In this document: positions 1,215 to 60,340 of the stretch, piece after piece | Layout of the letters: every line of letters starts with the position of its first letter | How positions within the stretch are numbered: the first letter of the stretch is position 1 | Assembly: GCA_026389065.1 (NCBI GenBank) | Contig: JAPLIP010000036.1 | Span: 815-64,814 of the forward strand | Source: Candidatus Babelota bacterium | GTDB lineage: Bacteria; Babelota; Babeliae; Babelales; Chromulinivoraceae | DNA length: 64,000 nt | Reading direction: 5' to 3' | Notes under the pieces: model-generated | Seen by the model: the letters and a program-made list of their open reading frames with translations, nothing else | What the model was told of the DNA's origin: nothing | The model's database searches: none | Translations under genes and position numbers: made by a program

Positions 1215-2360
1215 ATGTCACAAAAAAATTACACCAAAATATTATTAATCTTTTTAACTAGTTTTTCTCACTTAAAAATTAATTGTTGGTGGTTCGATAT
1301 CCTTCCAATAAAACAAATCATTCAAGAAAATCCATCAATTAAATATACAAAATGTTTTGATCCTGTTGATTTTAATTATGCAGAGTTTCCCTTGTCTTTG
1401 AATCAGTCGTGGCATCCAAACAAGGGAAGATTCGATGAAACATTTGTCATAACCATTCCAAACGGAACCCTACAATCAAAAAATGGATTTACTGTCATAA
1501 ATAATCACTTTATCGATGAAATGATTTGGAAAAAATTTATGCACAACCTCCAACTTGTAAAACAATATAACTATAAGCCACAATACTTTGCGAAACGAGT
1601 TGCGGTCATTACGCAGCCTGCATACGGAAATTATTTCCATTGGCTGACAGAAGTACTTTGCAGATTAGCCCTTTTAGAAATAAGCGGCGAGCCATATGAT
1701 TATATTTACACCCCGCAAGACAGAGCTTACATAAAAGGTAGTTTAGATCTTTGGGGAATCCCACAAGAAAAAATACTTACGCCTTCAAACGATGATACCT
1801 ACTTGCAAGCAAAAGAGATTATAATTCCATCTCTTGTCTCAAATAGCAGCTTAAATAGTATTTATTTTTCTTGTTATGTGCAGCCGCACCTTATCAAATA
1901 TGTTATAAATAAACTGCTTGCTGCGGCAAAAGAATTTCCATCTGAGCACGAAAAAAGTAAACGCATTTTTATTTCAAGAAAAGATTCTCCACAAAGAAAA
2001 CTTTTAAACGAAGATGATGTGTTTGCATTGCTAAAGCCTCATGGCTTTGTGCGCTATGAACTTGAGCATTTATCCGTAACTCAACAAATTTTATTATTTC
2101 ACAATGCAGAAATTGTTATTTCACCACAAGGTACTGGCCTGGCAAACTGTATATTTTGTACACCCAAAACTCAGATTATAGAACTTTTCCAAGGGCTGAA
2201 TGATTGTACTTTTTGGTATTTATCACAAGAGCTTGGTTTAAATTATACGCCCATTAAAACAATAGAATTTTCACCGAATTACTATTCCGGATGGAGTGAT
2301 AACACAAGTATGCCGCTCGATATTATTCAAAAAATGATAGGTGATTTAAATATTGATTAA
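1215..2360 (+). CDS. Glycosyltransferase family 61 / DUF563 protein (paralog 1 of 4)
   Basis: Family hallmarks 'NYFHWLTEVLCRLALL' and 'RIFISRKDSPQRKLLNEDDVFALLKPHGFVRYELEHLSVTQQILLFHNAEIVISPQGTGLANCIFC'. Hydrophobic N-terminus. Confidence 0.75.
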   Translation: MSQKNYTKILLIFLTSFSHLKINCWWFDILPIKQIIQENPSIKYTKCFDPVDFNYAEFPLSLNQSWHPNKGRFDETFVITIPNGTLQSKNGFTVINNHFIDEMIWKKFMHNLQLVKQYNYKPQYFAKRVAVITQPAYGNYFHWLTEVLCRLALLEISGEPYDYIYTPQDRAYIKGSLDLWGIPQEKILTPSNDDTYLQAKEIIIPSLVSNSSLNSIYFSCYVQPHLIKYVINKLLAAAKEFPSEHEKSKRIFISRKDSPQRKLLNEDDVFALLKPHGFVRYELEHLSVTQQILLFHNAEIVISPQGTGLANCIFCTPKTQIIELFQGLNDCTFWYLSQELGLNYTPIKTIEFSPNYYSGWSDNTSMPLDIIQKMIGDLNID

Positions 2361-3751: not shown

Positions 3752-4546
3752 ATGAAAAAATGTTTAATTAATTCTATATATCAAGACACTGCATATGCCA
3801 GCCAAAACCATAGCAACCCATATCAAGAAAAAGTTCGCGAAAATGGCCTTGATTGGCCAGATGCAGCACATACAATGATCGGCCTGCATAGGTTAAATAA
3901 TTTACAATTTTGTGTTGAAGATGTGCTACAAAATAATATACCTGGAGATTTAATAGAAACAGGCGTATGGAGAGGTGGTGCTAGTATATTTATGAGATCA
4001 ATTTTAAAAGCATATGAAAATACTGAAAAAAAAGTTTTCGTTGCTGATTCTTTTGAAGGAATGCCAAAGGTAAATACCGAGCTCTATCCAGATGATAAAG
4101 ATTTTGCAATTTTAACTAACTACAACAATGTTTTAGCGATTCCTTTACACCAGGTTCAATATAATTTTAGTCTTTATGGGCTGCTAGAAAGCCAAGTTGT
4201 TTTTTAAAGGGATGGTTCAAAGATACTCTTCCTAATGCGCCAATGGAAAAACTAGCGGTTATGAGACTTGATGGTGACTACTACGAATCAACAATGGATG
4301 CTCTTACTAGCCTATACCCAAAGCTATCAATTGGTGGATGATGGTGACTACTACGAATCAACAATGGATGCTCTTACTAGCCTATACCCAAAGCTATCAA
4401 TTGGTGGATGGGTAATTATTGATGATTACAATATCCCGTGTTGCGCTAAAGCAGTACATGATTTTAGAAACAAATTTAATATTACTGACGAGCTATGTAA
4501 AACAGCGGATAATATAGGCGCTTTTTGGAAGCGAACAAAAGAATAA
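3752..4546 (+). pseudogene. TylF/MycF-type (macrocin-O-methyltransferase family) sugar O-methyltransferase, disrupted by a T-run frameshift (about 4200-4207) and a 70-bp tandem duplication (4271-4410)
   Basis: Family motifs are split over frames. Frame 2 has 'LYLDLMKKCLINSIY...LIETGVWRGGASIFMR...VFVADSFEGMP'. Frame 1 has '[45 protein letters not shown]' followed by a stop. Frame 2 then has '...GGWVIIDDYNIPCCAKAVHDF'. Conserved residues ('DLSKDLYLDL') continue upstream of the 3752 ATG. Confidence 0.8.
4271..4410. repeat. Perfect direct tandem duplication, 2 x 70 bp (4271-4340 and 4341-4410)
   Basis: The string atggtgactactacgaatcaacaatggatgctcttactagcctatacccaaagctatcaattggtggatg occurs twice back to back. 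70 is not a multiple of 3. Confidence 0.97.
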
Positions 4547-4627: not shown

Positions 4628-5788
4628 TTACAGCTCAGGATTCTGTACTAAAAACTCTTTAACTTTTTCCAAAGATAACGGAACTGGCGCTGTCCATGGT
4701 CCATGATGAACTTCAAGACCAGGAGAATCATCGATAGCGCTATACTTTAATCCAAAAATTTCACCAACATAAAAGAATGTAGCCTCAACCATTTTTTGTG
4801 TAATTTCTATGTAATGAGTTCCTGGCTTACAAAACATAATATTTGTACTACCTGATCCCAAAAACGAAACTATTGTTTTTGCGTTATTAAATAATGAAAT
4901 TTTTTCTGCAACAGACAGCCTAGCTAATTCGTATCTTTTAAATCCAAGTGGCTCAAATAAAGCAAACACTTCATCTTCATTTGGGATTGCTCTTTTTCCA
5001 CCAGCATCTTTTCTTGAAATAAATATTTTTTCTGAACGCTCAGTATCAAGCTTTAAAGCTTCAACCCCAGCTAAAATTTTATTGTGAATATGTTTCATTA
5101 AAAAATCTACATAGTGATTTACGAGCCAAGAAGGTGGTACCTTACATCCAGATACGGACGTTGGCATAATAATAACATCTGCATGTATGCACCCAGTCGT
5201 TACCATCGGTATAATTTTTGATCTATCTATTCCCCAAAGATCTAATGATTCTTGCATAAATTTTTCATAGTAAGGAATGCACAAGTAGTCATACTCAACG
5301 CCATAAACTTCAAGCAATGCTAGCTGGCTAAGTATCTCAAAAAACCAAAGTCCATAGCAATAAGGGTACAAACGAGAAACAATTGCAACACGACCTGAAA
5401 CTTTCAAAATATTTGATGGCGCTTCTTGATCAATAAAATCTTGGTTGTTAAAAAAATTTAATCCACCCATTTGAGTTTCTTTAACAAAAGAATCGTTTAC
5501 ATAAACATATCCTGTTTTATCAAAAAGAGCTGTCCCTTGAGGAACCTCTAGAATAAACATATCAACATGCTCACCTTGCGACGGAAAATAGTTAACATGA
5601 TCCTGATACAGTGGAAACGGAGCATGATTAAAAGAATAGTTACTTGTGCATTGCACATAACTTGACTGCGGAAACTCTTTTACAAAATCTGACAATGACC
5701 TTTGATAAATCCGTGATGCTTGTAAAAATGTGCTTACAAAACAAATAAAGCTCACAAATAAAATATTACGCACAAACTTCATCAACAA
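4628..5788 (-). CDS. Glycosyltransferase family 61 / DUF563 protein (paralog 2), N-terminal signal anchor
   Basis: 'YCYGLWFFEILSQLALL' and 'KIFISRKDAGGKRAIPNEDEVFALFEPLGFKRYELARLSVAEKISLFNNAKTIVSFLGSGSTNIMFC'. Hydrophobic N-terminus 'ILFVSFICFVSTFLQA'. Confidence 0.75.
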   Translation of the reverse strand: MLMKFVRNILFVSFICFVSTFLQASRIYQRSLSDFVKEFPQSSYVQCTSNYSFNHAPFPLYQDHVNYFPSQGEHVDMFILEVPQGTALFDKTGYVYVNDSFVKETQMGGLNFFNNQDFIDQEAPSNILKVSGRVAIVSRLYPYCYGLWFFEILSQLALLEVYGVEYDYLCIPYYEKFMQESLDLWGIDRSKIIPMVTTGCIHADVIIMPTSVSGCKVPPSWLVNHYVDFLMKHIHNKILAGVEALKLDTERSEKIFISRKDAGGKRAIPNEDEVFALFEPLGFKRYELARLSVAEKISLFNNAKTIVSFLGSGSTNIMFCKPGTHYIEITQKMVEATFFYVGEIFGLKYSAIDDSPGLEVHHGPWTAPVPLSLEKVKEFLVQNPEL

Positions 5789-5883: not shown

Positions 5884-7050
5884 TTATAAATCAGGGTGCT
5901 CAACTAAAAATTTTTCAATTTTGTGCAAAGGGAATGGCTCTGGAGACGCCCAGATACCACCACCATTATCTACAAAAGTAGAATCATTAATAAAGCTATA
6001 TTTTAATTTACATGTGTCAGAGACAAAGAAAAATGTAGCATCAACCATTTTTTGAGTAATCTCTACATAGTTAGTTCCAGCCTTGCAAAATAAAATATTT
6101 GCAGCTCCAGATCCAACAAATGAAATTACTGTTTTTGCATTATTAAATAGTAAAATCTGCTGAGATACCGACAAATGCTCAAGCTCATATCTAACAAAGC
6201 CATATGGCTTAAATAGTTCAAATACTTCATCTTCATTTAACACAGATCTTTTTCCCTTAGCTCCCTTACGAGAAATAAATATCTTTTCTGGAAAATTATA
6301 AGACTTTTCTGATAAAGAATTTACACCATCAATCATTTTATTTCGAACATACATCAATAAAAAATCATGATAATAATTGCAAGAGACGCGAACTCCTGGC
6401 TTATCTTGAGATATTGCTGTTGCCATTATTACAGAGTCAGCTTGTATAGTAGCACCATAAACAATTGGTACAATTTTTGATCGATCAATACCCCAAATAT
6501 CTAATGATTGCTGCATAAATTTTGTATAATAAGGAATACACAAATAATCATATTCTATATTATTAATCTCAAGAAGTGCCAGCTGACCAAGCACATCAAA
6601 TATCCAATGGCCATAGCAATATGGATATAAATGAGAAACAATGGCAACTCGACCTGGAATTTTTGTAATTCTTGAAGGGTTTTTTCTATCAACAAAATTA
6701 CTTTTATGAAAAGAGCTTAAATTTTTAATTTGAGTTTCTTTAATAAAAGAATCGTTGATGTAAACATATCCTGAAACATCAAACAACACAGAAGCCTTTG
6801 AGGCCTCTAAAAGAAAAATGTCAGCATGCTCACCTTGTGATGGAAAAAATTTAGAATCCTCTGGATACAGTGGAAAAGGAGCATGATTAAAAGAATAGTT
6901 ATTTGTACATTGCAGATAACTTGACTGCGGAAACTCTTTTACAAACTCTGACAAAGACCTTTGATAAATCCGTGATGCTTGTAAAAATGTGCTTACGAAG
7001 CAAATAAGACTTAGTATCCATGTGTTAACAATTCTTTTCACGTACTCCAA
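5884..7050 (-). CDS. Glycosyltransferase family 61 / DUF563 protein (paralog 3), close tandem duplicate of 4628-5788
   Basis: Same motifs ('YCYGHWIFDVLGQLALL', 'KIFISRKGAKGKRSVLNEDEVFELFKPYGFVRYELEHLSVSQQILLFNNAKTVISFVGSGAANILFC'). N-terminal ~55 aa are nearly identical to paralog 2. Confidence 0.75.
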   Translation of the reverse strand: MEYVKRIVNTWILSLICFVSTFLQASRIYQRSLSEFVKEFPQSSYLQCTNNYSFNHAPFPLYPEDSKFFPSQGEHADIFLLEASKASVLFDVSGYVYINDSFIKETQIKNLSSFHKSNFVDRKNPSRITKIPGRVAIVSHLYPYCYGHWIFDVLGQLALLEINNIEYDYLCIPYYTKFMQQSLDIWGIDRSKIVPIVYGATIQADSVIMATAISQDKPGVRVSCNYYHDFLLMYVRNKMIDGVNSLSEKSYNFPEKIFISRKGAKGKRSVLNEDEVFELFKPYGFVRYELEHLSVSQQILLFNNAKTVISFVGSGAANILFCKAGTNYVEITQKMVDATFFFVSDTCKLKYSFINDSTFVDNGGGIWASPEPFPLHKIEKFLVEHPDL

Positions 7051-7072: not shown

Positions 7073-8242
7073 TTAATATGATATTTCATTTACATGTAGG
7101 GATATAAAGTTTTTAATAATATCTACTGGAACGATAGTGCTATCGGCCACGTGGCCACGACTTGTAAATTCAGTTTTTAAACCAAAATAATTACATTTCA
7201 TATCTTGTGCAAGATTGCAAAAATGAGCATCGTATAATTTTTGAAAAATTTCGATAATCATGGTATTTGGTTTGCAAAATATAATATTTGCAAGTGCTGA
7301 TCCATGAGCGCCAACAATTACGTCTGCTCCATTAAATAAAACAGCCTGTTCAAGGAGTGACATTTTACTAAGGCAGTAACGCTTAAATCCCTTTTCTTCA
7401 AACAGTACAAAAATCTCATCTTCATTTACTATTGACCTAGTAAATCCATCTTTTCTAGAAATAAAAACTTTTTTTGAAAAATTATAGTTTGTTTCAATAT
7501 TTTTCACCTCTGGTAAAAACTTAGACCTAATATTATCTGTCATCCAATATGGCCAATATGCAGTTGCTGGATACCAATCATAAACTGGATCAGTTGCACA
7601 AACATCTCTTCGTATTGCCATAGATGGAACGATCAATTCATCTGCCTGAATGCATTGATCTTCCCCTGTGCACTCTATAATTTTTTCCAATGGAATGCCA
7701 TATAACTCATATGTTTCTTTCATATATGGTGCATACTTTGGAGCAAACAGCCAATCATATTCAATCCCTGATTCTTGCAATATTATTAATCTTGGTAGCA
7801 CGTCATTAAACCAATGAGAAAAGACTTTATGTAGCGACGTTGTAATTACAGCAACCCTGCCTGATATTTTTGTCACTTTATTCAAATCTGTTTTTTTAGC
7901 TAAAAAATCATTGACCTGCGCACCAAATGGAACCAGTTGGTTAAAAAAATCTTTGACTATGTGATTATCGATTTTGATCATCCCAAAATCAGAGCAAACT
8001 ATTCCCTTTGGAATTGTCACTACAAAAGTCTCAGATAAAATTCCTTCTATCGGTTGAGCCTCATTTGTAGACGTAGAAACGGACAATTTTTCATAACAAA
8101 ACTTTAATGGATCATGGTGTTTAATATACGAAATATCTTTTCTAGATAGCATCACGTCATGAAGTGATGCAAAAGAAATGTCTTGGGCTTTTAATGAAAT
8201 AACAGATGAGAATACTGACAATAACAAAGTTATTTTTTTCAC
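7073..8242 (-). CDS. Glycosyltransferase family 61 / DUF563 protein (paralog 4), signal peptide
   Basis: 'KVFSHWFNDVLPRLIIL' and 'KVFISRKDGFTRSIVNEDEIFVLFEEKGFKRYCLSKMSLLEQAVLFNGADVIVGAHGSALANIIFC'. N-terminus 'MKKITLLLSVFSSVISLKA'. Confidence 0.75.
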   Translation of the reverse strand: MKKITLLLSVFSSVISLKAQDISFASLHDVMLSRKDISYIKHHDPLKFCYEKLSVSTSTNEAQPIEGILSETFVVTIPKGIVCSDFGMIKIDNHIVKDFFNQLVPFGAQVNDFLAKKTDLNKVTKISGRVAVITTSLHKVFSHWFNDVLPRLIILQESGIEYDWLFAPKYAPYMKETYELYGIPLEKIIECTGEDQCIQADELIVPSMAIRRDVCATDPVYDWYPATAYWPYWMTDNIRSKFLPEVKNIETNYNFSKKVFISRKDGFTRSIVNEDEIFVLFEEKGFKRYCLSKMSLLEQAVLFNGADVIVGAHGSALANIIFCKPNTMIIEIFQKLYDAHFCNLAQDMKCNYFGLKTEFTSRGHVADSTIVPVDIIKNFISLHVNEISY

Positions 8243-13199: not shown

Positions 13200-15119
13200 T
13201 TACCAATTGTAAGTCATACCAACGTCAAGAATATATGCAGGGCTATTTCCTGTTGGAACGCCACCAATTAAAGTTCCACACATATCCGTATAATGTTGCC
13301 CAGGAAAGAAAAGTCCAAAATACGAATAGATATTAAATTCTTTATATATATCAGCTGAAAGTTTTGTTGTAACCTCAATCCCAAGCGAATTACTTGATGG
13401 CTGAAGCAATGCTGGAACTACAACAGCTCCAGAAAGAGGAGACAGCACCGCAGGCTTAACTACAAAGTTAGACACATCTGGCGACCAATATCCAATTACG
13501 TTTGGAGAAATTTTTACTTTATGATCACTCCAATTTTGAGGACTCCAATCAACAGCTCCACCAAAAAATATAATATTTGTAACTTCATCAATACTATCAG
13601 ATTGAAGAACGTGATTAAGGTTTTGATTTATAGTAATGGCGCTTGGATTTTTAACGTTAAAACGAGGAATCCCTTTGTTAAAAACAACAAGCTGAGTTAA
13701 GCGCTTACCAGAATAAACAGACTGCACAGGAATAAACCCTGTAAACTGTTGATTCATAAGTTGATCCGTTGTCAAAAGATTTGTATTAAGCTGTGGCCCA
13801 ATATATCCAGATGCGTATCCAGCACCAAGCGTAGCTACTAAGACTTTTTCGATGCATTCATACGAAGCATCACCCATTAAGAAAAACCCAGAAAGATTAA
13901 ATTGCTGTGCTGGTCTAAATCTATCAAATGCATTCCATAGCCCAGGAGCGATTTCCATTCCATTAAAGCTTGAGCCTTTACGAGAGCCTTTTACCGCAGC
14001 ACTGTTTGTTGATGTTACATAAGCAGACGTTGGGTTTTTTGTAATTGCAGGATCTTGTGTATAAATTTTTGTATACTGCTCTGAAATTGCACCAGTGGAA
14101 AGATTGTTTGCTAACTTTATTAAATTTCTATCCCACGGCTTAAGGCCTTGGCTTCCCTGGTTAAGAGCTCCTTCAAGCCCCCAGTTAAGTCGACCCTTTA
14201 CGCCCTCAATTGCACAACCATAGGTCGTTAACAAAGACTCCGCGTCTATTAAAAACTCAAGAGCTTGATCAGGACCCCGTAAGAAAACAATATATGGCTC
14301 AACAGACAATTTTTCTTTTGCTCCGTCAAGTAGCTTAACCATACTGCGCATCGCTGAAACATATGACTGGCCAGGCAATCCTCTTGCCAGGCATCCAGCC
14401 TCCAAGTCACCCTGTCTGACAGGCGCGCTATTGCTTCTGTATCCAAGCGTGTAATTTTGAAGAATTGCGGTATAAAAATCAACAACAAATCTTTCTGCTA
14501 TGGGATTTAAGCTTAGGCGCACAGCTGGAGCAAACTGATCAATAGAGTCTCCAGGAGAGAATCCCAAAAATCCACGGACTACATATGCAGCTCCAAGACT
14601 AATTCCACGACCAACCTCAAAAGGAATCAATCCAACCTGTAAATAGTTATCGTTTGGATAATCTAAATTTCCAAGAGCCATTTTTACCCAAGCTTCACGA
14701 GACCAAATTAAATGCTTGTCTGCAGACTTTCCCTTAACAGGAACAGGCACATCAACAACCATTGCCACAGAATCACCAACCTTAGCATCTGTTTCAAATC
14801 CCCATTTGTGACGAACCCGAAATGTTTCATGAAATAAAAGCCTAGGCTGCTCAACAGATCCGTGTAAGGCATCGATAGTAAAGTCAATTGTTGACCTTTC
14901 GTATGATGTGCAATCCCAAGGAATAGCGTTATTTAAAAATTGAGTGTTTTGAGCTCCAAAATATTCTTGAGTATATCTGCCCATACAACTAGCTGAAAAA
15001 TCATCTGTCTTATAAACCAAGCCCTTTGATAATTTTTGAGTAAATGGACTTAAATAACTAACGAAAAAAAATGATAAAATCAAAGACTTTATCGACAGAT
15101 GCAGAGTTGGGAATTTCAT
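13200..15119 (-). CDS. Putative outer-membrane beta-barrel protein (lineage-specific)
   Basis: Signal-peptide-like N-terminus, Gly/Ser/Asn/aromatic-rich alternating composition, and a C-terminal aromatic end '...VGMTYNW' typical of OMP barrels. No family recognised. Confidence 0.45.
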   Translation of the reverse strand: MKFPTLHLSIKSLILSFFFVSYLSPFTQKLSKGLVYKTDDFSASCMGRYTQEYFGAQNTQFLNNAIPWDCTSYERSTIDFTIDALHGSVEQPRLLFHETFRVRHKWGFETDAKVGDSVAMVVDVPVPVKGKSADKHLIWSREAWVKMALGNLDYPNDNYLQVGLIPFEVGRGISLGAAYVVRGFLGFSPGDSIDQFAPAVRLSLNPIAERFVVDFYTAILQNYTLGYRSNSAPVRQGDLEAGCLARGLPGQSYVSAMRSMVKLLDGAKEKLSVEPYIVFLRGPDQALEFLIDAESLLTTYGCAIEGVKGRLNWGLEGALNQGSQGLKPWDRNLIKLANNLSTGAISEQYTKIYTQDPAITKNPTSAYVTSTNSAAVKGSRKGSSFNGMEIAPGLWNAFDRFRPAQQFNLSGFFLMGDASYECIEKVLVATLGAGYASGYIGPQLNTNLLTTDQLMNQQFTGFIPVQSVYSGKRLTQLVVFNKGIPRFNVKNPSAITINQNLNHVLQSDSIDEVTNIIFFGGAVDWSPQNWSDHKVKISPNVIGYWSPDVSNFVVKPAVLSPLSGAVVVPALLQPSSNSLGIEVTTKLSADIYKEFNIYSYFGLFFPGQHYTDMCGTLIGGVPTGNSPAYILDVGMTYNW

Positions 15120-18333: not shown

Positions 18334-19398
18334 TTAAAATTTTGACCCTGAAGTATCCTGAGACCCTAAGCCAACTTCCTCAAGTCCATGACCAGAAGAA
18401 ACAAGCTCAATTTCTAACCCCAACAATTCTGAAGCCAGGCCTATGTTTTGACCAAGTTTACCAATAGCAAGCGCTCTTTGGTCTTCACTGACCCAAGCGC
18501 GAGCTCTTTTATCATCTAATAATTCAACTCTGTTAACCTCTGCGGGACGCAAAGCAAGAGCAACAAGCTCTTCTTTTGAATTTCCCCACGAGAAAACATC
18601 TATTTTTTCACCATCAAGCTCTTTTAAAATAGGCTTAATTCTGCCGCCGCCAACACCAATACATGTCCCAACAGGATCAATGTTTGGATCGTTTTGCGAC
18701 ACAATAACCTTGCTCTTGTATCCAGCTCGACGAGCAACAGCTTTAACCTCAATCAATTTATCATAAATTTCAGGGATTTCTAATTCAAGCAAGCGAGCCA
18801 AAAACTCACCAGATGAACGATCTAAAATAAGCTGTCCAGTGCTACGATGCTCCTGATGAACTGTTTTTAAAAGTGCCCGGATAGGGCGACCGATAACATA
18901 AGTTTCTGTGGGAATAGACAGAGACCTTGGCAAGAAGGCCATGGTGTCTCTAAGCATAACAAGCGCACCATTTTGCTCATGTTTATGAACAACGCCCTGC
19001 ACGATATGACCCTCTTTGTCTTTAAACGCTTCGTAAACACTTAAAGCTTCAATATCTTTAAGTCTTGCCGCGATAACCTGACGAGCTTTTAATATTTCAA
19101 CACGCCCAATAGGCTCTTCAAACGCTATCCAAACTTTATCGCCAAGCGTAATACCGCTTTGTACGGCCTGAGCCTTTTTTAGCGATATTTCCATGACTGG
19201 ATCTTCAACGGTAGCAACGACAAGTTTTTCAACTTCAACAAGAATTGATTCTGTTTTTTTGTTTACAGAGACTCTCAAAATCGCTTCTGGGTACTTTTTA
19301 GAATAAGCTGCCAAAATGCCTTCACAAATAACACTCTGCAAAGACGCTTGGTCTAAACCTTTTTCATCAACAAGTTCTGCAATAACTTTATTTAACAT
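18334..19398 (-). CDS. nusA: Transcription termination/antitermination factor NusA
   Basis: N-terminal 'MLNKVIAELVDEKGLD', an S1 domain and KH domains ('DPVGTCIGVGGGRIKPI', 'ALAIGKLGQNIGLASELLG'). Start chosen at ATG 19398, not the upstream in-frame ATG 19464. Confidence 0.9.
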   Translation of the reverse strand: MLNKVIAELVDEKGLDQASLQSVICEGILAAYSKKYPEAILRVSVNKKTESILVEVEKLVVATVEDPVMEISLKKAQAVQSGITLGDKVWIAFEEPIGRVEILKARQVIAARLKDIEALSVYEAFKDKEGHIVQGVVHKHEQNGALVMLRDTMAFLPRSLSIPTETYVIGRPIRALLKTVHQEHRSTGQLILDRSSGEFLARLLELEIPEIYDKLIEVKAVARRAGYKSKVIVSQNDPNIDPVGTCIGVGGGRIKPILKELDGEKIDVFSWGNSKEELVALALRPAEVNRVELLDDKRARAWVSEDQRALAIGKLGQNIGLASELLGLEIELVSSGHGLEEVGLGSQDTSGSKF

Positions 19399-19666
19399 TT
19401 TATAACAAGGACCCCGATTTTGAGAATTACAATTTTCTTTAAAGATATTTTTGATAAGTAACATAAAATATTATAGCCAAAAAAATAAAAATGAAAAGTA
19501 GAAAGATAGCTACCCCGTTTTTTTTGGATCATCTCTTTGATATTATTATTATTTATATATAGATATTTATATCTTATAGTAATAGGTGAATCGTGTTTAT
19601 GTGGATAACTCGCAACCAAACTAGGTGTTTTTGTTGTTCTAATAGTCTTTTTTTTCTTTAAAAACA

Positions 19667-19700
19667 TGTGGATAAGTGGTGGATAACTATGTGGATAACT
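19667..19700 (-). repeat. Left DnaA-box array: three head-to-tail 11-mers (tgtggataagt / ggtggataact / a / tgtggataact)
   Basis: Read directly from the sequence. Inverted relative to the right array. Confidence 0.9.
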
Positions 19701-19811
19701 CATGGGGGGTAGTGCCTTTGTGGGCTCTGGATCGCGCTATCGCAATGTTGCACACTTGGATTTCCTGATCCAGAGCCAGTATTTGATCATTGGATGGGGA
19801 TAGGGGGGGTG

Positions 19812-19855
19812 AGTTATCCACAAGTTATCCACCACTTATCCACCACTTATCCACA
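19812..19855 (+). repeat. Right DnaA-box array: four contiguous 11-bp units (agttatccaca agttatccacc acttatccacc acttatccaca)
   Basis: Read directly from the sequence. The 11-bp period is roughly one helical turn. Confidence 0.9.
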
Positions 19856-19864
19856 TAAAATTAT

Positions 19865-21325
19865 TTACCCAAAAATGTACTTTTGTATAAAATGACTCCA
19901 AGAGTTAGTCATGGCAAATGGTGACTTTAAATAATTTTGAGATATTGAGTGCTCTGGAAAGTAAATTGAAATCCCTTGAGCGTTTTTTAGTTTTTGGCCT
20001 ACACAGTTAGCAACTACAAATTGAGGTATTATGTCTAACCCTTCTTGCAGGGCGCTGCTCAATTCTCTTTGAAGGGCTACCTCGCGAGATTTATCTTTGA
20101 TACTTATGTGCTGAACGTGCTGCTGTATATTTAAAAAAAAGTGACCAAGGTCTATGTAGCTTGGTTCGTCAAAGCAGGTGCAGTATTTTGTTGATTTGCA
20201 CTTTCTTAATATGTCTGAAGCGCTATGATTTGTTTGATGTTGCAAAGCCTCTATTAACAATTCTGAGACTTTGCTGATGCTATCTTCTAGCGCCTGAGAA
20301 AAAGAAAGATCAAGTGCTGATTGGGTATATTCATTTATTATTTTTTGATAGTTTTGCTCATATGAAAACACAAGCTGCTGGGCAAGTTCTTTTGGGCTTA
20401 GGCTTTGTTTTAGCAGTGGCTTTAGGGCTAGCTCATAATTCCAACCTGTTCCATACTCTACCTCTTGCGATGAAACCATGTATTGAGAATATTTTTTTGC
20501 TATCGATGCAATTCCTATCATAGACATGAGGCATGCGTCAAACCCTAGGATTGCTAATTTTTGCTTAGATAAAACATTGTTATAAATTTCATGTAATGCA
20601 AATTCTAAGTCGTGGTTATTTATATAGCTTTTGAATGTGTCATCGAAGCAAATCCCGCGCCTTCCATCGAGTAGTATATTTTTTAAAGCTTCTTGATATA
20701 AAAGCGCTATGTATCCAACGCCTCTATCGATTTCTAGCATGTTATCTGTAGGGTTTGCGTAAAACAAATTGCATGGATTAATCGTTCTAGAAAAGCTTGG
20801 GTCCTGTTCGCCAGATCCATGATTCCAAAGAATTAAAGCGTATTCATCTGCTGGATAGTGTGAAGCAGACCATGCTACAAAGTCGATCAGAGTATTCGGG
20901 CTTCCGCTGTTAAGTTTTTGCATTGGAGAGTCCTCTCCGAGCACCAGTAGTTTTCTTCCCGCCTTTACCACATATCGTCTTGTAGGGCTTGAGTTTCCAG
21001 GTGTGTTTAGCTGAACAACAATGTTTACGTTTTCATTAGAACCAATAGATTCTAGTTGCTTTAGGTTTTTCCATGCAAAGTAATGAAGGTCATTATCGGC
21101 TGCCATGTAAACCATAAAAGTTAGCGGCTTTTTTGAATGTATTGAGCGTATTTCTGCGCAATCTTTTTCTGTATAAAAGTCTTCCTTTTGTGACTCTATG
21201 GCAAGCTCAAAGAGCTCATCTGTTGATATAAGCCTAGGGTCTAACCGACCGTGTGACAAATCTGTTTGCAGCATGGTAAAAATGCATAGGGTAAAGATTT
21301 TTGCTTTTTTTGCATAGTGCTTCAT
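19865..21325 (-). CDS. Clostripain-like cysteine peptidase (family C11), secreted
   Basis: Catalytic His/Cys contexts 'ALILWNHGSG' and 'ILGFDACLMSMIGIA', 'MVYMAADNDL' near the N-terminus, and a signal-like N-terminus. Confidence 0.7.
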   Translation of the reverse strand: MKHYAKKAKIFTLCIFTMLQTDLSHGRLDPRLISTDELFELAIESQKEDFYTEKDCAEIRSIHSKKPLTFMVYMAADNDLHYFAWKNLKQLESIGSNENVNIVVQLNTPGNSSPTRRYVVKAGRKLLVLGEDSPMQKLNSGSPNTLIDFVAWSASHYPADEYALILWNHGSGEQDPSFSRTINPCNLFYANPTDNMLEIDRGVGYIALLYQEALKNILLDGRRGICFDDTFKSYINNHDLEFALHEIYNNVLSKQKLAILGFDACLMSMIGIASIAKKYSQYMVSSQEVEYGTGWNYELALKPLLKQSLSPKELAQQLVFSYEQNYQKIINEYTQSALDLSFSQALEDSISKVSELLIEALQHQTNHSASDILRKCKSTKYCTCFDEPSYIDLGHFFLNIQQHVQHISIKDKSREVALQRELSSALQEGLDIIPQFVVANCVGQKLKNAQGISIYFPEHSISQNYLKSPFAMTNSWSHFIQKYIFG

Positions 21326-32757: not shown

Positions 32758-33588
32758 GTGAAAATTATTTCAGTAATGAATCAAAAGGGTGGCGTTGGAA
32801 AAACAACCACATCTGTAAATTTAGCAGCTGGCCTTGTGCGCGCTGGCAAGCAAGTTTTACTTATTGATGCAGATTTGCAGGGTAACGCAACATCGGCACT
32901 TGGTGTAGTTTGTAAGCAAAAAAATGATGTTGAGTGTGATCTGTTTGCGCTTTTAACAAACCAATGTAATATACAAGACGCGCTAATTTCTAGAGAAATA
33001 AAAAACAAAAATAAAAAAATGACTCTTGATCTTATCCCTGCAACTATTGCACTTTCTGGATTTGATCAGCTTGTTCGTGCTATTCCAAATAAACAGCTTC
33101 TTTTAAAACAAATGCTCCAAGATGTTGATGCGTATTATGATTATGTTTTAATCGATTGCCCGCCAAGCCTTGGCCTCATGACTATAAACGCTCTTGTGGC
33201 AAGTGATGAAGTTTTGATCCCTGTTCAGCCAGAATTTTTTGGGCTGCAAGGAGTTTCTCAGCTTATGGACACTATCGACAGCTTGCAAAAAAGTATGAAT
33301 CCACAGCTTGCAATTTGTGGAGTAGTTTGCACTCGATTCAATCGTAGAAATATTCATAATGAAGTACTTTCGTGCTTGCAAGATAAGTTTGAAAAAGGTT
33401 TATTTGCTACTAAAATTCATGAAAACATTGCTGTTGCCGAAGCCCCAAGCTTTGGAAAAACTATCTTTGAATACAATGAAAACTGTTCAGGAAGCTATGA
33501 CTATGATTTGCTGAGCAAAGAGTTTATTAATCGAGATATTAAAAATATGGCAATGCCTGTAATTAAAGAAAAAATGCTTGAAAGATAA
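32758..33588 (+). CDS. parA: ParA/Soj-type partition ATPase (GTG start)
   Basis: Deviant Walker A 'NQKGGVGKTTTSVNLA', 'LLIDADLQGNAT', 'YVLIDCPPSLG', 'VAEAPSFGKTIFEY'. Confidence 0.9.
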   Translation: MKIISVMNQKGGVGKTTTSVNLAAGLVRAGKQVLLIDADLQGNATSALGVVCKQKNDVECDLFALLTNQCNIQDALISREIKNKNKKMTLDLIPATIALSGFDQLVRAIPNKQLLLKQMLQDVDAYYDYVLIDCPPSLGLMTINALVASDEVLIPVQPEFFGLQGVSQLMDTIDSLQKSMNPQLAICGVVCTRFNRRNIHNEVLSCLQDKFEKGLFATKIHENIAVAEAPSFGKTIFEYNENCSGSYDYDLLSKEFINRDIKNMAMPVIKEKMLER

Positions 33589-33597
33589 GGGATCGTC

Positions 33598-33897
33598 ATG
33601 AAAAAAAGATTGGGCACAATTCCAAAAGGCCTTGAGTGGATTTCTGAGCAGCCAGATGGAAAAGCTAAGACTATGCCACTGTTTAAAAATAGTTTCGATT
33701 ATGCTATTCCTGCTGCAAAAAGAGGGCTACAGGAAGATTTAATTCGCGCAACGTTTATACTTAAACAGGAGTATCTTGAGAAAATTAAATCGCATGCCTA
33801 CTGGGAGCGCTTACAAATAAAAGATGTATTTGATGAAATGTGCGAGCAGTTTTTTAAAGATAAAAAAGTTAGATCTATTCCAGAAAAACGAAAATAA
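33598..33897 (+). CDS. Small ParA-adjacent protein (99 aa), candidate minimal centromere-binding partner
   Basis: Starts 10 nt after the parA stop. N-terminal 'KKRLGTIPKGLEWI' loosely resembles the ParB N-terminal K/R-rich 'GLGRGL' peptide. 'RATFILKQEYLEKIKSHAYWERLQIKDVFDEMCEQFF' looks like a ribbon-helix-helix / ParG-like module. Confidence 0.4.
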   Translation: MKKRLGTIPKGLEWISEQPDGKAKTMPLFKNSFDYAIPAAKRGLQEDLIRATFILKQEYLEKIKSHAYWERLQIKDVFDEMCEQFFKDKKVRSIPEKRK

Positions 33898-36711: not shown

Positions 36712-37500
36712 ATGATTCGATTAAAAAAAATCAGTATTTGTTTTGGTGTTTTTGGGCTTTTTTTTATTTTTATTAGCAAAAATCAAGTTAACCGAGCTGT
36801 GCCTTGCAAAGCTTTGGATGCTCAAGAGCCTGGGCTTATCAGTGAAATGTTAAATGATGTTGAAATGGGTTTTGATTGCAGTGATGATACAATTGAAAAT
36901 CAAAAGGACCATAAAGTGTACGCAAGTGAAAGACAAAAGCGTGATTTCTTTAAATCAATTGGCTGTCAGTATATTAATTTTATGGATATAAAGTGTGCAC
37001 CGTCTGAGCTACCTGATCCAAAAGATTCTGCGCATTATAAATCTGATAGCAAAAACATTTTAGAGCTATCTGAAAAATATCGAAATGACATACAAAATAA
37101 AAAGCTAGCTTCTATGTATATTTCGCTTATTTCAAAAAAAGTTGGGCATGGTATTTTTGCGACAATGTTTATAAAGTCAGGCGATTTTATTGGTACATAT
37201 GCTGGCGAAGTGTGCTCAGGACAAGCGCTTGAAGATACTGAGTTTGCTTGGGATTATGGAGCAATGGTACCGAGCGGGGATCGGTTAATCCTTGACGGGA
37301 AATACCGCGGTAATGAGCTACGATTTATAAATCATGCAAAAGATCCAAACACAAGGGCGGTTTATTTGATTGCTGATGGCAAGTTGCATGTGTGTTACAT
37401 AGCGCAAAAAGATATTGCTGCAGGTCAGCAGCTTACGGTAAGCTATGGAGATGATTATTGGACAACGCGTAATGTGCAGCCAGAAAGTTTTCAGGACTAG
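36712..37500 (+). CDS. SET-domain (lysine methyltransferase-like) protein with N-terminal signal/anchor
   Basis: 'GHGIFATMFIKSGDFIGTYAGEV', 'NELRFINHAKDPN' (NH motif), 'LTVSYGDDYW' (ELxF/YDY-like). N-terminus 'ISICFGVFGLFFIFISK'. Confidence 0.75.
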   Translation: MIRLKKISICFGVFGLFFIFISKNQVNRAVPCKALDAQEPGLISEMLNDVEMGFDCSDDTIENQKDHKVYASERQKRDFFKSIGCQYINFMDIKCAPSELPDPKDSAHYKSDSKNILELSEKYRNDIQNKKLASMYISLISKKVGHGIFATMFIKSGDFIGTYAGEVCSGQALEDTEFAWDYGAMVPSGDRLILDGKYRGNELRFINHAKDPNTRAVYLIADGKLHVCYIAQKDIAAGQQLTVSYGDDYWTTRNVQPESFQD

Positions 37501-44475: not shown

Positions 44476-44865
44476 TGGTGGAGGCGATGGGAATCGAACC
44501 CATGTCCGTAGAGAGTCAAGTCAAAAGTACTACATGTTTATTTACCAAATATACGAACTTGCTGCCTTGGTAACATAGCATTGCAAGAAAGTCTTTTTCT
44601 TATACATCTGCACTATGAAAAAGCTAATATCGTGCAGATAGGACTAATGGTTTATAATACGAAAGACAATGAAGAATAGTCGTCTTCACGGCGTCTTAAG
44701 GAAACAAACATACCAGCAAACATTCCTAAGAATAATGCTAAGTAAGCTGCGCCCACAGTTTTAAGTTCTGCATTTATTATTTTTGCTGTTTTATTAACGA
44801 GCACTCAACAAAAGCTCGACATGCACTCTCAACCATCATAAATACGTCGAAGCCAGTACGCCCCC
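44476..44865 (-). ncRNA. ssrA: tmRNA (transfer-messenger RNA)
   Basis: Minus-strand 5' end is GGGGGCGTACTGGCTTCGACG... and the 3' end is ...CTACGGACATGGGTTCGATTCCCATCGCCTCCACCA. The acceptor stem pairs with G3:U as required for alanylation. 390 nt. Confidence 0.9.
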
Positions 44866-45082: not shown

Positions 45083-45159
<77 letters not shown>

Positions 45160-58408: not shown

Positions 58409-58639
58409 TTATAGATACCCCTAAAGTATTTTTATTTGGTTTAAGAAATTGATTTAATTTTACAATTAAATCTAGATAGTTTTTAAACTAATCAAATATA
58501 ATTATAGATTATTTGTTTCTATTTGTAAAACTACGAGCTGGTTTTGGCACTTATTCATTTTACTCACCGATATGGTATACTGACTGTGTGAAAATCATTG
58601 CTACAGAAAGAAAAGTTATCATTTTGGGGAAGAATTTTT

Positions 58640-60340
58640 ATGAAAAAAATATATTTATTGTTCTTAGTTTTTTTTACTCAAAAAACGACTATATCTTCCG
58701 AAGGACCATTGTTTTCAGGTCTTTTGTCAAGATGTATAAAAAGCATTGAAGATGGCGATAAACGAAGCAGTAGGATCGTATCTCTATCTCTTAATGCTTT
58801 TAATCATCTACATCACGAGAAAAATTCAATTAATGATTTTTTTGCAGATAAAAATATTCAAGATTTATTTTTGTTAAGCCATTCTGGCAAAGATAGTAAT
58901 TTTTTATCGGTTGATAAATTTGAGAGTCAAAGAGACTTTGACATTGCTATTTTGAACGCTCAAAAATTAATGTTAGCTCGTTTGTACATTCAGTTTTTTA
59001 GCGAATATATTAAAAAAGCTGAATCAATCTTACAAGAAATTTCTGTGGCAAAAGAGTATTGGAAAAAAGAGTTGTTTTGTGAGTCGTTGCCATGGACAAG
59101 AAAAAATATTACTCGCTGGTCAACTAAAAAATCATACCAAAATTTTCTTGCCGGTCGCATACAGGTTTTACAGAAAGCAGAAGATGAGCTGTCTTCAGTT
59201 CTTGGCCTTGCGCTTCATGGGCATTATCAAATTTCAAAAATAAATTCGATAGATAATATTTCCGCCGGTCTTTCCAGCGGCGCATTGCCGATGTACCATC
59301 AGTTTAATGTTCCATTTTTAGAAATTGAAAGCAATCACGTTGATGTTTACAGGCTTTTTAAGGATGCTTGGTGGTTTGTCCAAATTGCAAATGAGGACGC
59401 AGAAAGGTTTCAGACCATTATTGATGAACATAAAAAACCACACCATTTCGCACGACATAAGGTAGCATATTCTGTTATTGCTGGATCAATAATTATGGCA
59501 ATGTGTGCTTATAAAAAATATAAAGAACATGTGCCATTTTACAAGAAAAAAAGCAAAGAGGTGTTTGATAATTTTATTCAAGAGTACATTGTCGATGCGG
59601 CAGCGGCTGGCAAGAAATTCTTTTGGGATCAAGATAGGAAGGTGGTAAGAAAGATTAATAAGATGGATCCTCTTCCTACGAATGATATCACCTTTCCTCA
59701 TTTAAGCCCAAAGGATCAGCTTCCGACAGTGGATAATAAAGTAGCTACAGTTGCAGGATTTATTCCTGTTCGCAGCCAGAATGATTTAAATGAACATCAA
59801 AAAGTTATTAATCAAAATATTCAGTCAGGAATTAAGGATTATAATAATGTTATCGATTCTGTTAATCGAGCGCTTGAAGAATACAAAGAAATTAAGCAGA
59901 CCATAAATCAAAACAAAGAGGAGGCTGTCCTCGTTGCTAATAATCTTTTTGAGGTTGTTAATCAAAATTCTCGGGCGACGTTGTTTATGGTTGCCGTACT
60001 TCCTACGGTTGGTGTTGGTTATTTAGGTTGTCGCACTATAAATGTTGGATACAATAGATTTATTAAGCATGATACTTGGTATAAACCAATGAGAAACTTG
60101 GTACGATCAATTGATATTATTTTAAATAAAACCATAACGACACAAGAGCGATCATTTAGCCAAGACGGAAAGCTCCATATTTTAATTATTCAATTAAGGT
60201 CTTATGTTTATTGCTTGTCTAACGAAGAGCTGTTCTTGTTTCAAGATGATATTTCTCAGCTTCTCTCATTTGATTTAAGCTATGAGCAAAAGCATAAAGT
60301 TCTTGAGCGAATGCATAGAACTTATGAGTTTTTAAAATAA
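58640..60340 (+). CDS. Hypothetical membrane protein (lineage-specific)
   Basis: Signal peptide 'MKKIYLLFLVFFTQKTT'. Internal TM segments 'VAYSVIAGSIIMAMCAY' and 'ATLFMVAVLPTVGVGYLGC'. Confidence 0.5.
   Translation: MKKIYLLFLVFFTQKTTISSEGPLFSGLLSRCIKSIEDGDKRSSRIVSLSLNAFNHLHHEKNSINDFFADKNIQDLFLLSHSGKDSNFLSVDKFESQRDFDIAILNAQKLMLARLYIQFFSEYIKKAESILQEISVAKEYWKKELFCESLPWTRKNITRWSTKKSYQNFLAGRIQVLQKAEDELSSVLGLALHGHYQISKINSIDNISAGLSSGALPMYHQFNVPFLEIESNHVDVYRLFKDAWWFVQIANEDAERFQTIIDEHKKPHHFARHKVAYSVIAGSIIMAMCAYKKYKEHVPFYKKKSKEVFDNFIQEYIVDAAAAGKKFFWDQDRKVVRKINKMDPLPTNDITFPHLSPKDQLPTVDNKVATVAGFIPVRSQNDLNEHQKVINQNIQSGIKDYNNVIDSVNRALEEYKEIKQTINQNKEEAVLVANNLFEVVNQNSRATLFMVAVLPTVGVGYLGCRTINVGYNRFIKHDTWYKPMRNLVRSIDIILNKTITTQERSFSQDGKLHILIIQLRSYVYCLSNEELFLFQDDISQLLSFDLSYEQKHKVLERMHRTYEFLK

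Follow-up and report, generated by a model that had tools for sequence, protein, structure and literature searches.

The 64-kb stretch of DNA studied here – the window – contains a gap of approximately 400 bp between nusA and a gene coding for a C11 (clostripain-family) peptidase, and a cluster of DnaA boxes within this gap makes it a candidate chromosomal origin of replication (oriC). The nusA gene lies on the minus strand with its start at 19398 (a longer open reading frame (ORF) from 19464 is unsupported by relatives) and is followed by infB; the C11 gene on the other flank has its stop at 19865, is transcribed towards the candidate origin, and has a ComEC-like gene beyond it. No terminator-like site is present between the C11 stop and the nearest boxes. 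A first-pass annotation of the window, which had proposed the candidate oriC, named both flanking genes, and translation and Pfam matches bear it out. The same evidence disposes of the idea that the flanking ORFs (486 and 376 amino acids) are a mis-called dnaA/dnaN pair, as they code for the C11 peptidase and NusA.

Eight DnaA boxes occupy 256 bp of the gap (19600-19855). Five are perfect copies of TTATCCACA, three of them on the minus strand (19600-19608, 19667-19675 and 19690-19698) and two on the plus strand (19814-19822 and 19847-19855); the other three have a single mismatch and read TTATCCACC (19678-19686 on the minus strand, and 19825-19833 and 19836-19844 on the plus strand). The layout is thus one plus three boxes on the minus strand followed by four on the plus strand, and a recount in the window recovered all eight coordinates of the first-pass annotation. 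These boxes and the features associated with them are, from left to right:

19541-19576, no strand: AT-rich DNA unwinding element (DUE), the least stable duplex; an AT-rich stretch is kept in relatives
19577-19585, plus strand: DnaA-trios 5'-TAG TAA TAG-3' (3'-GAT AAT GAT-5'), as read from the sequence, on the strand where the box reads TGTGGATAA
19586-19599, no strand: trio-to-box spacer of 14 bp, with G+C at 5 of 14 positions, richer than the neighbouring DUE
19600-19608, minus strand: DUE-proximal DnaA box, a perfect TTATCCACA and the counterpart of E. coli R1
19609-19666, no strand: A/T-tract spacer of 58 bp and fixed length, at the position of the E. coli IHF-binding region
19667-19698, minus strand: left array of three boxes (TTATCCACA, TTATCCACC, TTATCCACA) with 11- and 12-bp spacing, oriented as the DUE-proximal box
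19699-19813, no strand: variable core of 115 bp, 54% G+C
19814-19855, plus strand: right array of four boxes facing the left array, with an 11-bp period; the end boxes (starting at 19814 and 19847) are perfect and the inner two are TTATCCACC

The cluster is statistically significant, as is typical of oriC. The five perfect boxes are the only ones in the window, and dinucleotide shuffles contain a mean of 0.52 perfect boxes, with none of 100 shuffles reaching five; this agrees with the earlier estimate of less than about one chance copy per 64 kb. Elsewhere in the window there are at most two boxes (with no more than one mismatch) per 300 bp, and the Poisson probability of finding eight in 260 bp is approximately 4e-14. 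The spacing is also regular, with an exact 11-bp period in the right array and distances of 67, 11 and 12 bp between boxes on the left side, as found both by Tandem Repeats Finder and by a second repeat search. The two repeat finders thereby agree with the first-pass description of two inverted arrays with 11-bp and 11/12-bp spacing.

An AT-rich unwinding element, a further hallmark of oriC, adjoins the boxes. The 41-mer beginning at 19541 has a nearest-neighbour dG of -34.6 kcal/mol, a value less negative than that of any other 41-mer in the window (percentile 3e-5), and the segment 19541-19586, which had been put forward as the candidate DUE, is 89% A+T and holds this duplex-stability minimum. 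The plus strand reads in order AT-rich DNA, TAG TAA TAG, the 14-bp spacer, and TGTGGATAA (the 19600-19608 box), and the trios are predicted to be a single-strand binding track for a DnaA oligomer. This arrangement corresponds to the basal unwinding system (BUS), for which the published search rules allow the box up to two mismatches and the spacer any length of 0-16 bp, 13 being the commonest, and ask for three or more trios of the form NAN, consensus 3'-GAT-5' (PMC8287927). Here, a perfect box is separated by 14 bp from three consecutive NAN trios, which are on the same strand and side as in E. coli. The tandem pair of boxes beside the trios, which is optional in the search rules, is lacking, with a single box at this position and the next one 67 bp away.

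A NusA search identified 11 GTDB species-representative genomes with NusA proteins 64-88% identical, and three more distant contigs (59-63% identical) were included in the comparison. The 11 genomes are labelled Candidatus Dependentiae, Babeliales or Chromulinivoraceae, with a few metagenome-assembled genomes evidently mislabelled, and from these labels we take the window to come from a Dependentiae (TM6) bacterium of approximately 35% G+C. Perfect boxes within ±10 kb are confined to the gap before nusA in all 14 relatives, apart from one stray box in L077. The three distant contigs keep the gene order M16 peptidase – ComEC – C11 – (UDG) – gap – nusA – infB, and the box layout is kept too.

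An alignment of 12 sequences shows that the invariant columns are almost exclusively the boxes and a CTA-TTA-C/T-T motif, and that the intervening DNA has diverged (mean column identity 57%). This motif corresponds to the trios, since the complementary strand reads CTA TTA CTA after the box; the invariant columns here are C304, T305, A306, A309 and T311. The trio-to-box spacer measures 13-14 bp across the 12 closest genomes and approximately 13-15 bp in further metagenome relatives, and the relatives examined have an AT-rich, often (TA)n, stretch at the equivalent position of the DUE. Spacing between the DUE-proximal box and the left array is similarly constrained, with starts 66-67 bp apart in the 12 closest genomes and 65-68 bp apart in the three distant ones. 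Within this interval the 58-bp spacer has kept its length and diverged in sequence among relatives, with an A-run retained in invariant columns A238, A240 and A241. The fixed distance of 65-68 bp and the conserved A-run suggest a role in bending or looping, and by analogy with known origins the spacer is probably a bend or loop segment.

The DUE-proximal box has no more than one mismatch in 13 of the 14 relatives and two mismatches in L010. There are two to four boxes in the left array of relatives and three to six in the right array, with up to seven in L113. In the 11 closest relatives, the right-array box beside the upstream gene is always perfect and the rest are mostly TTATCCACC; in the present genome the core-side box of this array is perfect as well. 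A perfect end box with TTATCCACC neighbours is reminiscent of a strong anchoring site beside which weaker ones fill up.

The layout extends beyond these genomes. When metagenomes were scanned for runs of four boxes with an 11-bp period, at least 120 stretches were recovered; among the 80 that were looked at, the array adjoins a NusA homologue (46-92% identical) in 20. Of these 20, 19 were examined, and about 17 share the layout – 65-68 bp from box to array, a spacer of approximately 13-15 bp, CTA/TTA trios, and (TA)n-rich DNA – down to approximately 46% NusA identity. Four-box arrays with this 11-bp period are also frequent in metagenome contigs outside the Dependentiae, with G+C contents of 30-69% (among L078-L157, e.g. 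L093, L109, L133 and L147, and L083 and L128). Many of these contigs look phage-like, and in two the array is just downstream of a dnaA-like ORF. One contig (L090, 61.5% G+C) contains 25 tandem 11-bp units of (G/A)GTGGATAAAT at 5288-5561 beside a 476-amino-acid ORF, and this super-array could be a DnaA titration array or a plain repeat expansion.

Since four-box phased arrays are common in metagenome contigs of phage-like appearance, the possibility arises that the locus is the origin of an integrated plasmid or phage using host DnaA. We regard this as barely credible. The flanks are core housekeeping genes (nusA, infB, aspS, M16 peptidase and ComEC) with no mobile-element genes adjacent, and the synteny persists down to approximately 46% NusA identity. 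No integrase, replication-initiator genes or att sites bounding the locus were seen, nor is it absent from close relatives. Moreover, a chromosome-scale skew polarity changes at the locus.

The skew was computed over the 64 kb of the present genome and ±10 kb of each relative. In 2-kb windows, GC skew is approximately -0.1 to -0.2 at 10-20 kb and approximately +0.1 to +0.2 at 20-50 kb, and the cumulative minimum (100-bp bins) is at 19.4 kb. The plus-strand skew therefore goes from negative to positive, the polarity of an origin, and on this ground a terminus was rejected. A gene-strand artefact was likewise rejected, because a per-gene regression of GC3 skew gives a side effect of ±0.177 and a gene-strand effect of -0.007, so that the skew is set by the side of the site and not by the strand of the gene; directly to the right of the site there are two minus-strand genes where the plus-strand skew is already positive. 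In 11 of 11 relatives the minimum of the cumulative skew is no more than 500 bp from the gap, and a local skew minimum coincides with the gap in 14 of 14. On the local scale only, these profiles deliver the switch that the first-pass annotation had proposed to test for, and they contradict the combination that it had named as telling against an origin, a skew minimum elsewhere together with a better box cluster beside dnaA.

The skew also bears on whether the locus binds DnaA for a purpose other than initiation, either as a titration or recycling site of the datA/DARS kind or as a DnaA-controlled promoter region of nusA-infB. The dense boxes are approximately 100-380 bp upstream of a conserved nusA promoter, which favours this reading. 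However, the sign of the skew switches exactly at the site in 15 genomes, the least stable duplex of the window adjoins the boxes, and the trio module is present with the correct spacing. A titration site or operator needs no skew switch, weak duplex or trios, and we consider this explanation highly improbable. Loci of the datA/DARS type are box clusters away from the origin that lack an unwinding module, whereas a skew switch, a DUE and trios are all present here. A regulatory side-role for nusA-infB is compatible with oriC.

Taken together, the boxes, the skew switch, the stability minimum, the trio module, and the conservation in relatives lead us to predict that 19541-19855 is the chromosomal oriC of a Dependentiae (TM6, Babeliales / Chromulinivoraceae-like) bacterium, with a probability of roughly 0.92. 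A local skew sign change with the polarity of an origin is seen in the present window and in 14 relatives, and the candidate oriC of the first-pass annotation is strengthened by an architecture and a skew minimum kept in those relatives and by the architecture alone in about 17 of 19 further contigs.

One common companion of bacterial origins, adjacency to dnaA/dnaN – which is frequent without being defining for oriC – is lacking. As the first-pass annotation had reported, the window contains no dnaA: no Bac_DnaA Pfam domain was found in window ORFs of at least 120 amino acids, and no Walker-A or domain-IV signatures of DnaA in its six-frame translation. There is also no dnaA within ±10 kb in 11 relatives. 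The gap could accordingly be one half of a bipartite origin, as in B. subtilis and H. pylori, in which the unwinding half is here and a second box cluster is elsewhere, e.g. beside dnaA, whose flanks are unseen. Split origins do exist, as with oriC1 and oriC2 of H. pylori (PMC10316083). Nonetheless, the locus already has the full E. coli-type set of DUE, trios, R1-like box, and two opposed arrays, with no second part required, and we judge a bipartite origin unlikely.

Several further considerations weigh against assigning oriC to this locus. The evidence is drawn wholly from sequence, and the extent of the skew profiles leaves formal scope for a global skew minimum elsewhere. The flanks of dnaA lie outside view, with room for a second box cluster. 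The present genome has only three strict trios, the published minimum, and several relatives have five to seven. No IHF consensus was noticed in the 58-bp spacer by eye, with no pattern search run, and its bending is a conjecture. Finally, the bias of gene orientation around the site is weak: the first-pass annotation had described mostly minus-strand genes to the left and mostly plus-strand genes to the right, which does not hold overall, with 6 plus and 8 minus on the left and 15 plus and 20 minus on the right.

The closest parallel for the predicted oriC is that of E. coli. In E. coli, the left DnaA-oligomerization region (DOR; R1, R5M, tau2, I1 and I2) has one orientation and the right DOR (R4, C1-3 and I3) the opposite, giving two facing pentamers; DNA bending between R1 and the array assists opening of the DUE by the left complex, and the right complex stabilises the opening and aids helicase loading (PMC10316083). 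Boxes in the same direction bind with maximal cooperativity at a 2-bp interspace (PMC10316083), and E. coli oriC has clusters of four sites 2 bp apart (PMC6070618). The elements of E. coli oriC (and Vibrio cholerae oriC1) come in the order seen here: a gene transcribed away, the DUE, trios, approximately 13 bp, and an R1-type box (TGTGGATAA on the DUE-left strand). Beyond this box come a bendable gap of fixed length, the left array, oriented like the box, a middle region, the oppositely oriented right array, and lastly a gene reading towards the origin. Annotated E. coli oriC reads TAT TAG, 13 nt and TGTGGATAA (R1), with the same orientation of box to DUE. As in E. coli, array sites are 2 bp apart in opposed and facing arrays (minus on the left, plus on the right, with periods of 11-12 bp) with the DUE at the left edge, and the origin is not beside dnaA. 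In both, the distance that separates the R1-type box from the left array is also approximately a whole number of 11-bp steps, at 55 bp in E. coli and 65-68 bp here. The first-pass annotation had considered the tight, head-to-tail 11-bp packing in opposed arrays unusual, but this is the design of E. coli oriC (PMC6070618, PMC10316083).

There are also clear departures from E. coli. The array sites here all have 0 or 1 mismatch and are predicted from their sequence, whereas those of E. coli are low-affinity, ATP-DnaA-specific sites with at least two mismatches. The arrays consist of three and four boxes, with a copy number of 3-7 among relatives, and the neighbours are the C11 peptidase gene and nusA rather than mioC and mnmG. 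There is no cluster of GATC sites for Dam/SeqA sequestration, only three to four sites that are not conserved, and no IHF consensus was noticed by eye. The middle region is longer (approximately 100-125 bp), fast-evolving, richer in G+C, and without a strong R2-type box.

Like the BUS of Bacillus subtilis (boxes 6/7; Pelliciari et al. 2021, PMC8287927), the locus combines a box, a 13-14-bp spacer, at least three central-A trios, and AT-rich DNA; it differs in having a single proximal box in place of a tandem pair, three strict trios, and a less GC-rich spacer, and B. subtilis oriC flanks dnaA. In Thermotoga maritima, three TAG repeats of the DUE are essential for unwinding and for binding of the single-stranded DUE (PMC10316083), and its oriC resembles the present one in this three-trio TAG-type track (Lu et al. 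2023, PMC10316083), but its boxes are non-canonical 12-mers running in mixed directions, and it has only one DOR. For Chromulinavorax destructans, which belongs to the same phylum and probably to the same family, GC skew together with TTATCCACA led to a predicted origin at 651641-652233 (Deeg et al. 2019, PMC6561590). Those two criteria were also used here; the published account gives coordinates only, without gene context or architecture (PMC6561590), and that origin may correspond to the nusA-linked locus.

Taken with the models for E. coli, B. subtilis and T. maritima, the anatomy of the locus suggests how initiation might proceed. DnaA would occupy the consensus and near-consensus boxes, and the 2-bp interspaces would allow neighbouring protomers to touch head-to-tail, forming two facing oligomers, the first on the left array (19667-19698) and the DUE-proximal box (19600-19608), and the second on the right array (19814-19855). 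The 58-bp A-tract spacer would bend or loop to join the left oligomer with the DUE-proximal DnaA. An ATP-DnaA oligomer could then grow from the 19600 box across the 14-bp spacer onto the plus-strand TAG-TAA-TAG, where it would stretch and open the AT-rich DUE at 19541-19576. The replicative helicase would be loaded at the opened DUE, with forks departing both ways. Opening may be modulated by transcription of the neighbouring genes, nusA away from the DUE and C11 towards the right array, in the manner of gidA and mioC in E. coli.

The core between the arrays is much less constrained. It contains runs of G6 (19704-19709) and G7 (19803-19809), three GATC sites, boxes with two mismatches at 19766-19774 (plus) and 19795-19803 (minus), and an 11-bp inverted repeat (19723-19733 / 19767-19777) that is matched in none of 200 shuffles in the present genome. 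The G-runs and the repeat are present just as the first-pass annotation had listed them, and so are the GATC sites; these, however, number four in the gap against a window density of one per 275 bp, a mild enrichment only, and are not conserved, with zero to one in the cores of relatives. The relatives' cores are 99-125 bp long, and the sequence, inverted repeat, GATC sites, and G-runs are not conserved among them. We therefore rejected the repeat, the GATC sites and the G-runs as conserved origin parts, and they are probably non-functional; the repeat, which reaches significance only here, in L004 and, marginally, in L001 (the latter two having other sequences), is treated as lineage-specific and unexplained. 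A structured RNA was also rejected, as Rfam gave nothing at the gathering score in the core (only chance-level matches with E > 4), ARAGORN gave no match there, and the DNA fold z-score of the core is -1.3.

The sole conserved piece of the core is CCCTATCC beside the right array. It is located at 19795-19803 on the minus strand, 10 bp inside the right array and head-to-head with it, coincides with the two-mismatch box CTATCCCCA, and recurs at this position in relatives. Either DnaA, weakly, or another factor may bind it. The core has no strong R2-type box in the present genome, and more distant relatives often carry one solitary box there, resembling E. coli R2.

On the left flank, the best promoter match of the region is probably that of nusA-infB, as predicted from sequence:

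19470-19497, minus strand: probable nusA-infB promoter, TTTTCA-16-TATAAT, matching the consensus at 10 of 12 positions

The promoter is separated from the DUE by approximately 45 bp and directs transcription to the left, away from the origin, and a block TTTTCATTTTTATTTTTTT..TATRAT is kept in relatives; by inference, it could help origin opening. The nusA leader TCAAAATCGGGGTCCTTGTT (19399-19425, minus strand) is conserved directly upstream of the ATG (L001-L011) and could be a translational or autoregulatory element.

Several other genes of the window are of interest in their own right. A ParA/Soj-type ATPase gene (32758-33897) is followed by merely a 99-amino-acid ORF, with no canonical ParB, and no parS site above chance was found in the window with up to three mismatches allowed; parS/ParB was therefore rejected as support for an origin. 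A transfer-messenger RNA gene (44476-44865, minus strand, 136 bits) and a tRNA-Met gene (45083-45159, plus strand) are approximately 25 kb to the right of the origin. A 639-amino-acid ORF (13200-15119, minus strand) between aspS and an AP-endonuclease gene has no Pfam match, and Pfam-less ORFs of 626-689 amino acids are in the same slot in L075-L077, the likeness being one of place and size. Four paralogous GT61-family glycosyltransferase genes (1215-2360, plus strand; 4628-5788, 5884-7050 and 7073-8242, minus strand) are clustered with other glycosyl- and methyltransferase genes, including a TylF-like one at 3752-4207, in what looks like a lineage-specific expansion. Two proteins have eukaryote-like domains – a SET-domain protein (36712-37500, plus strand, E 6e-18) and one with a weak match to NCA2, which is associated with mitochondrial ATP-synthase regulation (58598-60340, plus strand, E 4e-7) – and might act on the host as effectors of an intracellular parasite.

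Phased arrays of DnaA boxes are common, and the locus is a well-supported further case of a known type of origin. What it adds is an origin that is stably linked to nusA(-infB) in the 33 related contigs examined, and that stands apart from dnaA, with no copy of that gene within 10 kb in the 11 relatives tested. It also brings E. coli-type opposed arrays and a B. subtilis-type unwinding module together in a distant phylum, under selection that is visible on both designs from the fixed spacings and invariant boxes amid fast-evolving DNA. As evidence from an independent and deeply diverged lineage, this favours common ancestry or strong convergence as the source of both designs.

We also raise, as a speculative and rather doubtful extension, the idea that Dependentiae run a stripped-down, all-high-affinity version of the two-oligomer orisome of E. 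coli. If so, the consensus and near-consensus arrays would keep DnaA bound for most of the cell cycle, and the timing of initiation would be independent of the graded filling of weak ATP-DnaA sites and of GATC sequestration, with control coming from elsewhere. Candidates would be a lineage-specific factor acting on the fast-evolving, GC-rich core, read-through and divergent transcription from C11 and nusA-infB – which would couple initiation to translation capacity – or slippage-driven change in array copy number, as in the three to seven boxes seen among relatives. For this clade of uncultured, host-dependent bacteria, a fixed origin would aid genome closure, estimates of growth rate from the peak-to-trough ratio of metagenome coverage, and analyses of strand bias.

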